A stretch of DNA of 64,000 nucleotides, taken from sequence record NC_028957.1; one strand, given 5' to 3'. The first letter of the stretch is position 1. Each line of letters starts with the position of its first letter. The notes beneath the pieces were generated by a model. That model saw only the letters and a list, made by a program, of their open reading frames with translations, did no database searches and was not told where the DNA came from. Positions 3,473-41,864 of the stretch are shown in pieces. Source of the stretch: Escherichia phage vB_EcoM_VR26. Position numbers and translations under genes: made by a program.

Positions 3473-3724
3473 TTAATCCTTGGGAGTTAACTCAATTGTA
3501 AAATATAGATTAGCATTATCCACATGATAACGGTAATCAACGTTATTATCCGGTGAAGTAAATTCCAGATTCCGGACGTTTAAAGGGTCGATATCAATTG
3601 GAAGACCTTTTATGTCTCGCAGATAAAGTTTAATGAAATATGGGAGCGCTGTAAAGTCTTCCTCGATTTTATCTAAAAAATCGGTAATATCAAATTGATG
3701 TTCCATATAAAAAATCCAAATCAC
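3473..3724 (-). CDS. hypothetical protein (83 aa)
   Basis: ORF track; immediately downstream of gene 55. Confidence 0.45.
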
Positions 3725-4247
3725 CTTCTTTATCTTTGGCGCTCTTATCAGACCCTGGCGCTTTAACTAAGGAGGATTCGTACTGTGTCATTTTGTCATA
3801 GATGTCCTGGATAAATGTTTCGTCAGCCAGAGCCACCATATCGTCGTCACGTGAATCATACACGTTATGGACGAAGTAGCTATATTTCTTTGCCATTTCT
3901 TTACGTTCTTTTTTGATACGCTGAACGAAAGCATTGAAGCAAGCCATTGTTATGTAAGCATGTGGATTATCGTATTTTGTTTCGTCGAAGTTATGAAGAC
4001 CTTTTATTGCGGCCTCAATTCCGTCCGCTATCATTTCCTGCTTCCAAGATTGGGTATATCCTGAAAAGTTGAAACGTTTAGACAGACCTTCGGCTATAAG
4101 CATAATCGCCAGACCAATAACATCGTTCTGGCGAATAATTTTATTTGGGTCGGTATTTGCATTCAGCTTCTGTTTCCACTCCGAAATAGCTTTCAGAAGC
4201 TCTTTATTATTTACATAGTTATTCTTGGTTAATTTAATTTCGTTCAT
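3690..4247 (-). CDS. 55: Late-transcription sigma factor gp55
   Basis: 185 aa; NYVNNKELL...[36 protein letters not shown]...[21 protein letters not shown] matches T4 gp55 almost residue for residue from memory. Confidence 0.95.
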
Positions 4248-7761: not shown

Positions 7762-7796
7762 AATAAACCCTTACCATTATTAGATAAGGGTATTTA

Positions 7797-7973
7797 TTAA
7801 ATATTATAGAACGAGCGATGCAACCGTTTAAATTGACGAATCATCTTTTTGGTAGGACGAGTATACAATCCCACACAGGTGGCCATAAACTGGTCAGTAG
7901 GACTTCCCTTGATAAAAAGTTTCCAGACCTTACCACCATTTAACTTTTCAGTATAGACTAATTCAGTTTTCAT
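7797..7973 (-). CDS. hypothetical small basic protein (58 aa), below ORF-track cutoff
   Basis: Own translation: MKTELVYTEKLNGGKVWKLFIKGSPTDQFMATCVGLYTRPTKKMIRQFKRLHRSFYNI; ATG overlaps upstream stop as TAATG. Confidence 0.45.
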   Translation of the reverse strand: MKTELVYTEKLNGGKVWKLFIKGSPTDQFMATCVGLYTRPTKKMIRQFKRLHRSFYNI

Positions 7974-26063: not shown

Positions 26064-26090
26064 TACCCCCTTATATAGGGGTATTTATTA
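26064..26090 (-). promoter_or_regulatory. RBS-sequestering hairpin plus late-promoter-like box upstream of lysozyme gene e
   Basis: Minus strand aATAAATA then ATACCCC-tatataa-GGGGGTAT with SD in the 3' arm, 1 nt before ATG. Confidence 0.5.
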
Positions 26091-37218: not shown

Positions 37219-37491
37219 CTATTTTAGATAAATTGCATATTTTTTATACCCAGCTGTCTCATGGCGGAGACCCTTGTCATTGGCAAAACGCTCAATGTTA
37301 TTAATTTGGTTCTGGTCAAGTTCAGAGATGTCAAACGCGAAAAAGTTGCGTTTGTTACCAATTGTTATATGGTCAGTTAAGTCAATGCTGTACAGGTGAT
37401 TGATATTGTCAATCATAGCTTTGACTGCTTTACTAATTTTTACTTCTTCATTCAGTTGGGACTCGTTGAAAAGTTCATTAAAAGTTTTCAT
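37219..37491 (-). CDS. Internal-protein-like protein (variant leader MKTFNELFNES)
   Basis: Leader variant of MKTYQEF. Confidence 0.6.
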   Translation of the reverse strand: MKTFNELFNESQLNEEVKISKAVKAMIDNINHLYSIDLTDHITIGNKRNFFAFDISELDQNQINNIERFANDKGLRHETAGYKKYAIYLK

Positions 37492-37499
37492 AAGAAACC

Positions 37500-37832
37500 T
37501 TATTTATACAGTTTAGCTAGTTCTTTACGTCCGCGAGCAGACATAATGAATTGTTCATCACCAATTTTGAAATAAGCCATACCGCCGTCAACAGCGATGC
37601 CAATTTCTTTAGTACCTTCTTTGCCTTTCCACTTGCCACCAGATTTCAGGACAGCTTCAACTGCAGCTTTGGAATATTTGGACGTTTGAAAACGTTCATT
37701 ACCAATCTGAAAGAAAACACCATCTGCGTTTTTGGATAAACCAAATTTCAGAGAGCCTTCACTATCATCAATTGATTTGGTCTCATTGATGGCGGATTCG
37801 GCTAAAAACTCATTATAAGTCTTGATGTTCAT
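37500..37832 (-). CDS. Internal-protein-like protein (start at MNIKTYNEFLAES)
   Basis: Leader variant; track ORF extends to 37865. Confidence 0.6.
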   Translation of the reverse strand: MNIKTYNEFLAESAINETKSIDDSEGSLKFGLSKNADGVFFQIGNERFQTSKYSKAAVEAVLKSGGKWKGKEGTKEIGIAVDGGMAYFKIGDEQFIMSARGRKELAKLYK

Positions 37833-37863
37833 TTTAACTCCGTTTGTTCGTTGGTGTAGGAAC

Positions 37864-37892
37864 ATAATACTGCACCTACACTCGTTTGTACA

Positions 37893-38584: not shown

Positions 38585-39261
38585 TATATTACCTTATTAA
38601 TTTTATCAAAAAGTTCTTCGAGTGTGCCATCGTTTTTAATAACAATGTCACTAGCTAGTGGTGGAAGTCCAGCTTCCGTAATGTGTGTATCAGTAGAATG
38701 ATTTGCTTCATCGCGTTCTACAAAGATTATTGTAGCACCCATCGCCCGAAGCGAATCAAGTTCGTTCTTTTGGCGAACATCAGGGACAACGTAATATTTA
38801 TATCCAGAATAGAGGTTGTCAAGATAATCGCACGCAAAAGTTTTAATCCAAAACATGCTGTCGAACTCTGTACAAACGATGTCAGTTCCAAGGGTCTGCA
38901 TGAAACGTCTAACTGTCCAGGGCTCAACATTATTTAGTGTGTGAAATTCAATGATTTTACGAACCATATCTGGATTCGGAAGGTCAAGATTATATTGTTG
39001 TTTCAACCATTCAAGAGCATCAACCAGAAGAATATGAGCTTCAGTGTTGTTCATTATCAAGGTTTTTTCGCGGTCATAACCTTGTCCATCAAAATTTTCC
39101 AGGGTCAAATTGTGTGGCAGGTCTTGACGAACCCACGCTTTATAAAGCGCTTCTTTAATTGGACCAGCAAGTTGCCACTTTGTTCCGTTTTGACTAATAA
39201 CATAATCAGCAGTCGTATCTTTACCACTGCGTTTTTTACCCACAATCGCAATTAATTTCAT
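38584..39261 (-). CDS. 1: Deoxynucleoside monophosphate kinase gp1
   Basis: 225 aa; P-loop IAIVGKKRSGKDTTADYV; position between 57A and 3. Confidence 0.9.
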
Positions 39262-39857
39262 ACGTTTCTCATAGATGGATGCATTGACTTAGACCTGATT
39301 TCCTGTTGCATTGCTGCATTACTATCAATCTGTGGTCTACCTTCTATTATTATACCATCAATTTCTACAGCAAAAGACTTAAAGTTAAAAGTTGCTGTTG
39401 CGTTGATGGCAGGGTCAGAATCTTCTTTATATGAATACTGAATCTCTGACAGGTCGGACGGCCATGCTCCATAGTAATGGATTGACATGACAATTTTGTC
39501 CTTGTTGTTATCTAAGATATGAAGCGTGACCGCTTCGGGACGACCCTTTGGATGCCATGCTTTTGATTCGTGTGTGATGTAGTTATTAAGCGAGAGCATC
39601 CATTTATAGATGTCAAGCCATGCCCTTAGGTCTTTGTCACACAGAAAGTTAACAATCAGCGGGTCGAATTCTATTGTACTACCAGGAAGACTGGAGCGAT
39701 TTATACCTTGCGTTCCACCGGGGACATCCGTCACAGGAATGTGAACCCCTGGGAGGGTAACGTCTTGAACGTTGAGTTTAAAAGTCTGTGTGAGGTTTGA
39801 ATCGCTTACCTCTAATATAAAGTTAGTCGTGTTAGTTTGATTATATAAACCTGACAT
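39258..39857 (-). CDS. 3: Tail completion / sheath stabiliser gp3 (start at MSGLYNQTNTTNF)
   Basis: Track ORF runs to 40019 into gene 2; internal ATG 39857 with SD AAGG; gene order 2-3-1 as in T4. Confidence 0.8.
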   Translation of the reverse strand: MSGLYNQTNTTNFILEVSDSNLTQTFKLNVQDVTLPGVHIPVTDVPGGTQGINRSSLPGSTIEFDPLIVNFLCDKDLRAWLDIYKWMLSLNNYITHESKAWHPKGRPEAVTLHILDNNKDKIVMSIHYYGAWPSDLSEIQYSYKEDSDPAINATATFNFKSFAVEIDGIIIEGRPQIDSNAAMQQEIRSKSMHPSMRNV

Positions 39858-39942: not shown

Positions 39943-40767
39943 TTATGAATTTCTCCATACTTTCTGGGAAGAGAATCTTTTGCCTTTCGACATAAATTGT
40001 TGCAATGGAAGCATAACAACGTTTGCCCAGTCGCTGGGCTTGATTTCAGTGATAGTACCTTTTATATTACCAGGTATATATGCTTTAATCATCTGGTCAG
40101 CCCCTTTAAATCCCTTCACCTTTGACCAATCAATCTTCAGATGAGTCTTGTTCGTAATCGTAGGAGTATTAGCATATTGCTTAAGCAGTTCCTCAAGGAA
40201 CTCTTGACGTGCCTTCGGTGGAATATAGTGCAAGTTCAAACCATACATCAAATTGTGCTTACCCAACCCAAGATAAATGATTAACGGGTATTTGTCCCAG
40301 TACGGAAGAGTATCCTTATGCTTTGCATCATAGATATAAGCATAAATCTTACCTGGTTGAGGTTTAGCCGTTACGTGCCCTCTGACAGCTTTCTTAATTG
40401 TCTCTGCGAACCATCTGGCAGATTTGGTGTTGCTTGCAGCGCCTTCGTTAGCAATCTTATCTCTTATGCTCTTTCTAAAGCTATTCACCATTATTAGCTG
40501 GCGTTCAGCCTTCGTAAGTTTACCAGCAGGTTTCTTTTTGAGTTTGGATACTTTATAAGCAGTCTGAATTCTCGAATGATATCTTGACATGCTTTTGGTA
40601 AAGGTTGAATAGTTGATTCCTTTCTCTTCAGCAAACTTTTTCGAGGTCATTCCCTTTTCTTTTGCTGTATAAAATTCAACCCCTATCTCAACCCATTGTT
40701 GTTCGGATTTACTGGGTTTCGGACCCGGTTTATCTGCAGATTCATTGATAAATGTAAAAATACTCAT
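39943..40767 (-). CDS. 2: DNA end-protector protein gp2
   Basis: Start at [25 protein letters not shown] (ATGA overlap with gp4 stop); 274 aa as in T4. Confidence 0.85.
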
Positions 40768-41213
40768 CCTTTCCATCCTAATTTTTTCAGTGAGTTTTCA
40801 GTGATTATCCTAAACGTTATACCCATTTTATCTGCCGTAGATTGTGCAGCTTTCCATTTGTCCGAGTTAACAGCCCAGGTATACATCTCGTTAATAAATC
40901 TCTTTTTGCTCGCAGCGGTATTATTAACAGGTTTGGTTGGTGGTCTTGTTTCTTTTAATGGCTTAACTTCGAAAAAGAACTGTTGTCCTGTATCAAACTT
41001 AACCCAGAAATCCATATAATACCTGCGCTTTTTACCATCGGCATTGCTAAAGTAAGGGATGATAACAGTCTCAGAACCCCATTGAACAACGTTCGGATGG
41101 TTGTCGAGCCATCTCATAAGCCAGGCCTCCCAGCTTGACCGGTATTGTATTTTCTTCCAGTCGCCCTTATATTTTTCTATATTAGTGGGCTTAAATTTCC
41201 CGGAGTATGCCAT
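40764..41213 (-). CDS. 4: Head completion protein gp4
   Basis: 149 aa; [29 protein letters not shown]...[14 protein letters not shown] matches T4 gp4 from memory. Confidence 0.9.
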
Positions 41214-41242
41214 ATAGCCTCCTAATAAATATTGATATACTT

Positions 41243-41253
41243 ATTTATAAATG
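41243..41253. promoter_or_regulatory. Divergent overlapping late promoters (gene 4 leftward, gene 53 rightward)
   Basis: ttaTTTATAaatgg: minus strand reads TATAAATA, plus strand TATAAATG. Confidence 0.5.
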
Positions 41254-41261
41254 GAGGCTTT

Positions 41262-41864
41262 ATGCTTTTTTCATTTTTTAACCCAATTGATTATGATGCT
41301 AAAACAATCAGAAAAAACCCTGCATCATTGACGAAAGAAGACGTCTTAAGCATTCCAATGACTGACATTTTCAGAAATTATCGTGCTTACTTTGATAAGG
41401 TCGCGGTCAATTATACACCAAAAACCTATTACATTGCCGGAGCTCCACGCCCGGAAGAATTAGCATATCAGCTATACGGCAACACTCAGCTCTATTGGGT
41501 TCTCCTTATGCTCAATGATATCTATGACCCGTATTATGGTTGGCTTTGTACCCAAGAAGCATCGTATCAAGCATCAATTCAGAAATATTCAAATGTCGGG
41601 GGCAATCAGGTCCTTTATCATGTGAACGAAAACGGTGAGAAGTTCTGGAACCTTGTTTCTTATCCTGATAATCCATACACCTGGTACGATAAAGGCGATA
41701 AAAACAAATTATATCCGCAATACGAAGGTCCATTAGCCGCAGTGGATATCTATGAAGATGCTATTCGCAAAAATGAATACAAACGAGAAATAAAGATAAT
41801 CGACCCTAACGATATCGAATCTTTTATTTCGGCGCTTATTCGTGAGATGGAGAAGTCGCTATGA
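41262..41864 (+). CDS. 53: Baseplate wedge protein gp53
   Basis: MLFSFFNPIDYDAKT...PMTDIFRNYR...YHVNENGEKF matches T4 gp53; ATG 41262 after SD GGAGG (track TTG start at 41232 overlaps the promoter). Confidence 0.9.
   Translation: MLFSFFNPIDYDAKTIRKNPASLTKEDVLSIPMTDIFRNYRAYFDKVAVNYTPKTYYIAGAPRPEELAYQLYGNTQLYWVLLMLNDIYDPYYGWLCTQEASYQASIQKYSNVGGNQVLYHVNENGEKFWNLVSYPDNPYTWYDKGDKNKLYPQYEGPLAAVDIYEDAIRKNEYKREIKIIDPNDIESFISALIREMEKSL

Follow-up and report, generated by a model that had tools for sequence, protein, structure and literature searches.

Organization of the gene 4/53 intergenic region

The region under study lies in a 64,000-nucleotide stretch of Escherichia phage vB_EcoM_VR26 DNA (the window), and is 96% identical to the corresponding regions of the Gapriverviruses vB_EcoM_VR7, VR25 and TH15 (Straboviridae, Tevenvirinae; T4-like). 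At the switch from minus-strand to plus-strand genes, the start codon of gene 4 (CAT on the plus strand, 41211–41213) and that of gene 53 (ATG, 41262–41264) are separated by a 48-bp gap at 41214–41261, such that the plus strand from 41211 to 41264 reads CAT-ATAGCCTCCTAATAAATATTGATATACTTATTTATAAATGGAGGCTTT-ATG. The original prediction had named the flanking genes as 4 and 53, and the VR7 annotation and PHROG matches agree with both assignments. Gene 53 opens a plus-strand baseplate block that continues, by the VR7 annotation, with genes 5, 5.1, 5.4, 6 and 7. The features of the locus are as follows.

40764–41213, minus strand: gene 4, head completion (head closure) protein, 149 aa; open reading frame, VR7 annotation of the 96%-identical region, PHROG head closure match (1e-62)
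41218–41223, minus strand: Shine-Dalgarno sequence (SD) of gene 4, AGGAGG, 4 nt from the ATG; from sequence, with CTCCT invariant in an eight-haplotype alignment (A1)
41224–41231, plus strand: proposed late promoter box of gene 53, AATAAATA, with A at −13; from positional orthology and conservation
41232–41241, no strand: 10-bp spacer separating the two facing boxes and containing both predicted +1 positions; from geometry
41242–41249, minus strand (read 41249→41242): very probable late promoter box of gene 4, TATAAATA, perfect; from an 8/8 match, conservation and annotated or predicted orthologues
41246–41253, plus strand: box of the original prediction, TATAAATG, with one mismatch, G at −6; from sequence
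41253–41257, plus strand: SD of gene 53, GGAGG, 4 nt from the ATG; from sequence, with GGA invariant in A1
41262–41864, plus strand: gene 53, baseplate wedge subunit, 200 aa; open reading frame, VR7 annotation, PHROG baseplate wedge subunit match (8e-72)

Read along the plus strand, the order of elements in the gap is gene 4 SD, plus-strand box, spacer, minus-strand box and gene 53 SD. Based on this geometry, the two predicted starts fall on neighbouring base pairs, with the minus-strand +1 at 41236 and the plus-strand +1 at 41237. A scan of the gap for sigma-70-type promoters and terminators returned none. The two translation-initiation regions (41211–41222 and 41253–41264) are near mirror images of one another, reading GGAGGCTATATG for gene 4 and GGAGGCTTTATG for gene 53 (12 nt, 92% complementary), and the whole 54-bp region forms a quasi-palindrome of initiation region, box, spacer, box and initiation region. 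This quasi-palindrome is absent from T4 and from the T4-like contig L013, and is partial in JS98-like phages.

Late promoter rules and the gp55 homologue of the window

A T4 late promoter consists of TATAAATA at positions −13 to −6 and lacks a −35 element (PMC1524935; PMC2988020). Among the 50 T4 late sites listed in a 2010 review, 32 are perfect, nine carry A(−13), which is the commonest variant, and the remainder are mostly other single deviations, together with two further exceptions (PMC2988020); the review cautions that in vivo activity has been demonstrated for not all of the 50 sites. Late promoters with a single deviation work in vitro, and some have been tied to in vivo 5' ends (PMC2988020). 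Substitution by G at −6 is not among the variants that the review names, and the segment from −5 to −1 shows a preponderance of AT (PMC2988020). In T4-like phages T(−13) is poorly conserved, this position being commonly A or T (PMC1524935). In the cryo-EM structure, the bases at −12, −9 and −8 are flipped by gp55 into pockets (PMC7892883).

The window encodes its own late sigma factor.

3690–4247, minus strand: gene 55 homologue, late sigma factor; PHROG late sigma transcription factor match (3.7e-68)

The window gp55 is 79% identical to T4 gp55, and all seven pocket residues examined (N13, L54, R57, F86, H95, Y97 and T99) are conserved. Because the pockets are retained, the late promoter rules of T4 should apply in the window. 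Promoter features were looked for in the T4 GenBank record and none were found, and a literature search for divergent or overlapping late promoters, or for T4 transcription start site maps, returned nothing usable; T4 dRNA-seq data are public (GSE255091, 2024 preprint).

A perfect minus-strand late box precedes gene 4

The original prediction rested on the sequence TTATTTATAAATGG, which is present in the gap at 41241–41254. As described there, it reads TATAAATA on the minus strand toward gene 4 (41249→41242) and TATAAATG on the plus strand toward gene 53 (41246–41253), and its core ATTTATAAAT (41243–41252) is a perfect 10-bp palindrome. The observation itself is therefore confirmed, and the interpretation attached to it, in which late promoters for both genes are arranged back to back on one palindromic TATA element, is partly supported.

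The part concerning gene 4 stands. With the box at −13 to −6, the predicted +1 of the minus-strand TATAAATA is the A at 41236, and the resulting 23-nt leader contains AGGAGG before the gene 4 ATG. None of the eight box positions varies in A1 or across 11 gap haplotypes. In the Tequatrovirus vB_EcoM_SA20RB (OL960581) the orthologous box carries a late promoter annotation, and in RB69 it has been predicted to be one. The minus-strand box therefore has the sequence and, by geometry, the placement of a T4-type late promoter, and TATAAATA is very probably the late promoter of gene 4.

Two plus-strand candidates for the gene 53 promoter

In addition to TATAAATG, the gap contains a second plus-strand candidate that was absent from the original prediction. 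This distal box, AATAAATA, occupies 41224–41231, where it directly abuts the gene 4 SD. It deviates from TATAAATA at −13 alone, and its −12, −9 and −8 bases are intact. With the box at −13 to −6, the predicted +1 is the A at 41237, which yields a 25-nt leader containing the GGAGG SD. In T4, RB69, JS98-like and other phages, a perfect TATAAATA is found at this site. The distal box is thus of a known variant type, correctly placed and conserved in position, as would be expected of a gp55-dependent late promoter.

The placement of TATAAATG is different. It ends on the G that opens the gene 53 SD, and its predicted +1 is the T at 41259, which follows the SD, lies 3 nt before the ATG and leaves a 3-nt leader (TTT). 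Since this start is downstream of the SD at 41253–41257, a transcript from TATAAATG would lack a ribosome-binding site. A short leader is by itself not decisive against a box, as a perfect minus-strand TATAAATA elsewhere in the window (37508→37501) has a predicted start only 4 nt before the ATG of a gene. The presence of the plus-strand reading can be explained without a promoter function: the gene 4 box is preceded by CATT on its own strand, and the C in CATT is the partner of the initial G of the gene 53 SD. Most likely, TATAAATG is no more than the complement of the gene 4 box together with the flank upstream of it.

In the arrangement originally proposed, TATAAATA would drive gene 4 and the overlapping TATAAATG would drive gene 53 back to back, leaving AATAAATA inactive. 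Both 8-mers are indeed present, TATAAATG with a single mismatch, and a shared palindrome of this kind is biologically possible, as a true example, TATTTATAAATA, is found in phages UPEC07 (MW250787), TH22, TH55 and 212. The UPEC07-type palindrome, which belongs to the same genus and also stands before gene 53, corresponds to the proposed arrangement with both readings sound. The window differs from it in the G(−6) of its plus reading, in its 3-nt leader and in the presence of a separate distal box; the UPEC07 version lies 35 nt from the gene 53 ATG, as compared with 3 nt in the window. On the plus strand of the window, the start at 41259 falls after the SD, and G(−6) is outside the variants named by the review (PMC2988020). 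Together with the chance and conservation analyses below, these features make an arrangement based on the shared palindrome very unlikely. Accordingly, two candidates were rejected: TATAAATG as gene 53 promoter, on its placement (a 3-nt leader without SD), and a bidirectional late promoter on one palindrome, for which the minus reading qualifies and the plus reading does not (a 3-nt leader, as compared with 13 and 35 nt in UPEC07).

In the phages that carry TATTTATAAATA, genes 4 and 53 are separated by an inserted homing-endonuclease gene that has a NUMOD3 motif. The palindrome, a perfect 12-bp one (UPEC07, 1218–1229 of locus L021), lies in the gap between the endonuclease gene and gene 53 and consists of two perfect late boxes sharing a TATA; the leaders are 13 nt (endonuclease) and 35 nt (gene 53), both with an SD. 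In these insertion phages the original gene 53-proximal box is destroyed (ATTGTAAATGGAGG), and gene 4 is apparently co-transcribed with the endonuclease gene.

Chance occurrence and placement of late boxes in the window

Matches to the three 8-mers were counted in the 64-kb window, compared with shuffled sequence and scored for placement. A box was taken as correctly placed when its predicted start lies 10–70 nt upstream of a same-strand gene start, for which the random strand-specific background is 5.5%.

TATAAATA: 8 found, 5.8 expected; correctly placed 4/8 (P=5.5e-4)
AATAAATA: 5 found, 8.2 expected; correctly placed 3/5 (P=1.6e-3)
TATAAATG: 8 found, 5.3 expected; correctly placed 1/8 (P=0.37)

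None of the three is enriched in raw number in the window, all counts being within chance, and weight can therefore be placed on position and conservation only. By position, TATAAATA and AATAAATA are concentrated before genes, and TATAAATG is not enriched there, which argues against the shared palindrome. The other single-mismatch variants show no significant placement enrichment, the best being TATAAAGA (2/9, P=0.085). From base composition, an opposite-strand match of at least 7/8 that shares its TATA with a TATAAATA box is expected at ~8.5% of boxes, and one of the eight perfect boxes has such a match. The second, palindromic reading is thus within chance and needs no special explanation.

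The count of AATAAATA also bears on whether gene 53 has a promoter of its own in the gap, since with five copies against 8.2 expected a 7/8 box is unconvincing by composition. If it had none, plus-strand transcription would start further upstream and run antisense to genes 4, 2 and 3. No plus-strand TATAAATA exists upstream of the gap within the window, however, as all four plus-strand copies are downstream. Furthermore, all relatives examined have kept the distal box, and at its site a promoter has been annotated (OL960581) or predicted (RB69). An upstream origin for gene 53 transcription is consequently considered exceedingly improbable.

Conservation of the facing boxes among relatives

The window gap was compared with the gaps of T4, RB69, VR7, SP18, MN01, RZ and P8, with 17 IMG/VR loci found with gp4, and with 38 IMG/VR stretches matching the pattern CTCCTWATAAATA-N7-11-TATTTATA. 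A single architecture is observed in all 11 gap haplotypes: the gene 4 SD, (T/A)ATAAATA on the plus strand, a spacer of 7–11 bp, TATTTATA (the minus box) and the gene 53 SD. The spacers of the relatives fall into classes of 7 and 9–11 bp. In A1 the invariant blocks are CTCCT, ATAAATA, TATTTATA and GGA. The four bases that follow TATTTATA, which would form the end of the plus box, vary among haplotypes. The plus-strand readings at the position of TATAAATG are listed below.

Window clade, L011/L035, L041 and L058: TATAAATG
T4: TATAAACA
JS98-like phages: TATACTCG
RB69: TATACCAA
L013, L015 and L017: TATAAAAG
L012: TATAAGAG
L016: TATACTTC

The recurrence of TATAAATG in four haplotypes (the window clade, L011/L035, L041 and L058) would favour a shared palindrome. 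The three of these that lie beyond the window clade all have a perfect distal TATAAATA, such that TATAAATG is never the sole candidate, and there are three to four mismatches at its position in the JS98-like phages, RB69, L012 and L016. Overall, the TATAAATG position shows one to four mismatches among the 11 haplotypes, with positions 5–8 variable, and TATAAATG as a conserved box was rejected on this basis as well. In L016, the distal box is AATAAATA itself and the proximal plus reading, TATACTTC, is unusable, which leaves the A(−13) box as the sole candidate in that locus. From the combined placement and conservation, the gene 53 promoter is more likely to be the distal AATAAATA than TATAAATG.

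Within the genus, seven Gapriverviruses (VR7, VR25, VR20, SP18, MN01, P8 and RZ) have a 48-bp gap identical to that of the window, and the gene 53 of these same seven phages differs from that of the window at 39–73 of 600 positions (6.5–12%). By this comparison, the gap is under stronger constraint than its coding flanks, as would be expected for a segment that holds two SDs, the putative boxes and short leaders.

The same facing layout is described in other T4-type phages. In OL960581, two regulatory features in the gene 4/53 gap are given as T4 late promoters; the plus box is nearer gene 4, the minus box is nearer gene 53, and 7 bp lie between them. For RB69, late promoters have been predicted at Pl:80613(+) and Pl:80684(−) (Nolan et al. 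2006); these map to the gene 4/53 gap, the sequence of which has both facing boxes. Like the present assignments, the OL960581 annotation and the RB69 predictions are sequence-based, being string or HMM matches. On these grounds, the putative facing promoter pair is an ordinary feature of T4-type phages that had been recognized before. The T4 pair itself is found in AF158101 at 77349–77356 (+) and 77371–77364 (−). The window shares with the T4-type pair (T4, OL960581 and RB69) the same genes, element order and facing orientation, with leaders of 21–26 nt. It differs in that the window clade has A rather than T at −13 of the gene 53 box, a site that is perfect consensus in T4, and in its spacer (10 bp, as compared with 7 bp in the T4-type pair), which makes the predicted starts adjacent rather than 4 bp apart.

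A proposed facing arrangement of two late promoters

Taken together, the comparisons make it probable that the gap holds two separate, facing T4-type late promoters, the minus-strand TATAAATA for gene 4 and the plus-strand AATAAATA for gene 53. The compact divergent late-gene control region that had been envisaged at the strand switch is thereby supported, and so is its gene 4 half. Its gene 53 box appears to have been misassigned to a reading whose start is past the SD, and in place of back-to-back promoters with one common palindromic TATA there would be a pair of distinct boxes that face one another over a 10-bp spacer.

In this proposal, which takes the T4 system as its model, both promoters would depend on gp55, gp33 and gp45. 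From the minus-strand TATAAATA (41249→41242), initiation at ~41236 would produce a gene 4 mRNA with a 23-nt leader containing AGGAGG. From the plus-strand AATAAATA (41224–41231), initiation at ~41237 would produce an mRNA that covers gene 53 together with the baseplate genes downstream of it and whose 25-nt leader includes GGAGG. Each box would lie inside the transcribed leader of the opposite gene, so that each leader is predicted to include the complement of the other box. The melted regions (−12 to about +2) would overlap, and one promoter would be occupied at a time per DNA copy; because two open complexes would need the same DNA, mutual exclusion on a single molecule is anticipated. For the window, the start sites, late timing, in vivo activity, gp55/gp33/gp45 dependence and mutual exclusion are inferred from sequence and analogy to T4.

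A variation on this arrangement retains the facing pair for the main work and adds low-level opening of TATAAATG by gp55-RNA polymerase. The outcome would be either a near-leaderless gene 53 transcript or mere competition with the gene 4 promoter, with which TATAAATG has four base pairs in common. Several features are consistent with such a third site: single-deviation variants are used in vitro, some with in vivo 5' ends (PMC2988020), the −12, −9 and −8 bases that fit the gp55 pockets (PMC7892883) are intact in TATAAATG, and the whole gap is frozen in seven Gapriverviruses. In addition, the distal box of the window clade is weaker than perfect, at 7/8, the same score as the proximal reading. 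All of the evidence against the shared palindrome applies equally here, however, and the conservation of the gap is fully accounted for by two boxes, two SDs and two short leaders. The −5 to −1 segment of TATAAATG is GAGGC, which is GC-rich as compared with the AT preponderance of late promoters (PMC2988020), although this is a weak criterion. Three active sites are therefore regarded as unlikely. A stronger form, in which the gene 53 promoter of Gapriverviruses has been weakened to A(−13) and TATAAATG is a genuine third gp55 site acting as a switch, is highly improbable. If it held, RNA polymerase at TATAAATG would exclude the gene 4 promoter through the four shared base pairs while making a near-leaderless gene 53 transcript, and the palindrome would set the ratio of head-completion to baseplate expression.

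The original prediction would be contradicted if start-site mapping at late times placed no transcript 5' ends within 10 nt of either of its boxes. A start at 41237 is 9 nt upstream of the TATAAATG box and would pass this test even though it contradicts the model under test. On the plus strand, the 10-nt criterion is therefore blind to the difference between facing boxes and a shared palindrome.

Apart from correcting the annotation, the reassignment is of little importance. When promoters are called by eye, the near-palindromic TATAAATA can be read on the wrong strand, and here the wrong reading would put the gene 53 start past its own ribosome-binding site. The corrected layout offers a clear example of two putative promoters and two translation-initiation regions packed into 48 bp, and the gap could serve as a natural test case for the competition of overlapping gp55 promoters.

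Related boxes and insertions at other sites

In the window, the variant box AATAAATA is also found ahead of two other genes, at 7791–7798 (−) before gene 49 (endonuclease VII) and at 26082–26089 (−) before gene e (endolysin); from predicted start to ATG the distances are 24 nt and 15 nt, respectively. In T4, where A(−13) promoters account for nine of the 50 sites, the identical 8-mer AATAAATA stands before gene 49, and TATAAATA stands before gene e. Both window boxes overlap the upstream stop codon, and a test that requires a box to be fully intergenic is therefore too coarse. An AT-rich downstream segment was likewise rejected as a discriminator, as the C-rich segments CCCTTA (gene 49) and CCCCTA (gene e) follow these two A(−13) boxes. 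Each of these two boxes is followed by a short inverted repeat (CCCTTA...TAAGGG and CCCCT...AGGGG, respectively) that reaches into the SD or stops a little before it. If late transcription began 6 nt past either box, the start would land in the 5' arm of the repeat. This combination of box and repeat may resemble the one described for T4 e and 49, in which the ribosome-binding site is exposed in late transcripts only.

The perfect TATAAATA at 37501–37508 (−) overlaps the stop codon of an upstream open reading frame (37500–37865), and the next gene, at 37219–37491, is ip9-like. This box may be either a chance match or a promoter for genes further downstream.

In the T4-like IMG/VR contigs L014 and L017, genes 4 and 53 are about 600 bp apart, with an extra open reading frame inserted between them. 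The facing perfect boxes are kept beside gene 53 and now precede the inserted reading frame, and gene 4 is consequently presumed to depend on read-through. The genes 3-2-4 region is a hotspot for mobile endonuclease insertion within the genus. Such genes are found between genes 2 and 4 in RZ (L022, 65–793) and P8 (L025, 65–712), and between genes 3 and 2 in VR7 (L001, 4588–5244). In the window, genes 3 (39258–39857), 2 (39943–40767) and 4 (40764–41213) follow one another without mobile endonuclease insertions. Finally, an unrelated viral contig (IMGVR_UViG_3300032258_000067; L029, 5918–5954) contains a divergent region of full symmetry, CTCCTTATAAATA-N11-TATTTATAAGGAG, in which either strand fits the search pattern; the SD-flanked layout of facing boxes is therefore not confined to the gene 4/53 gap.
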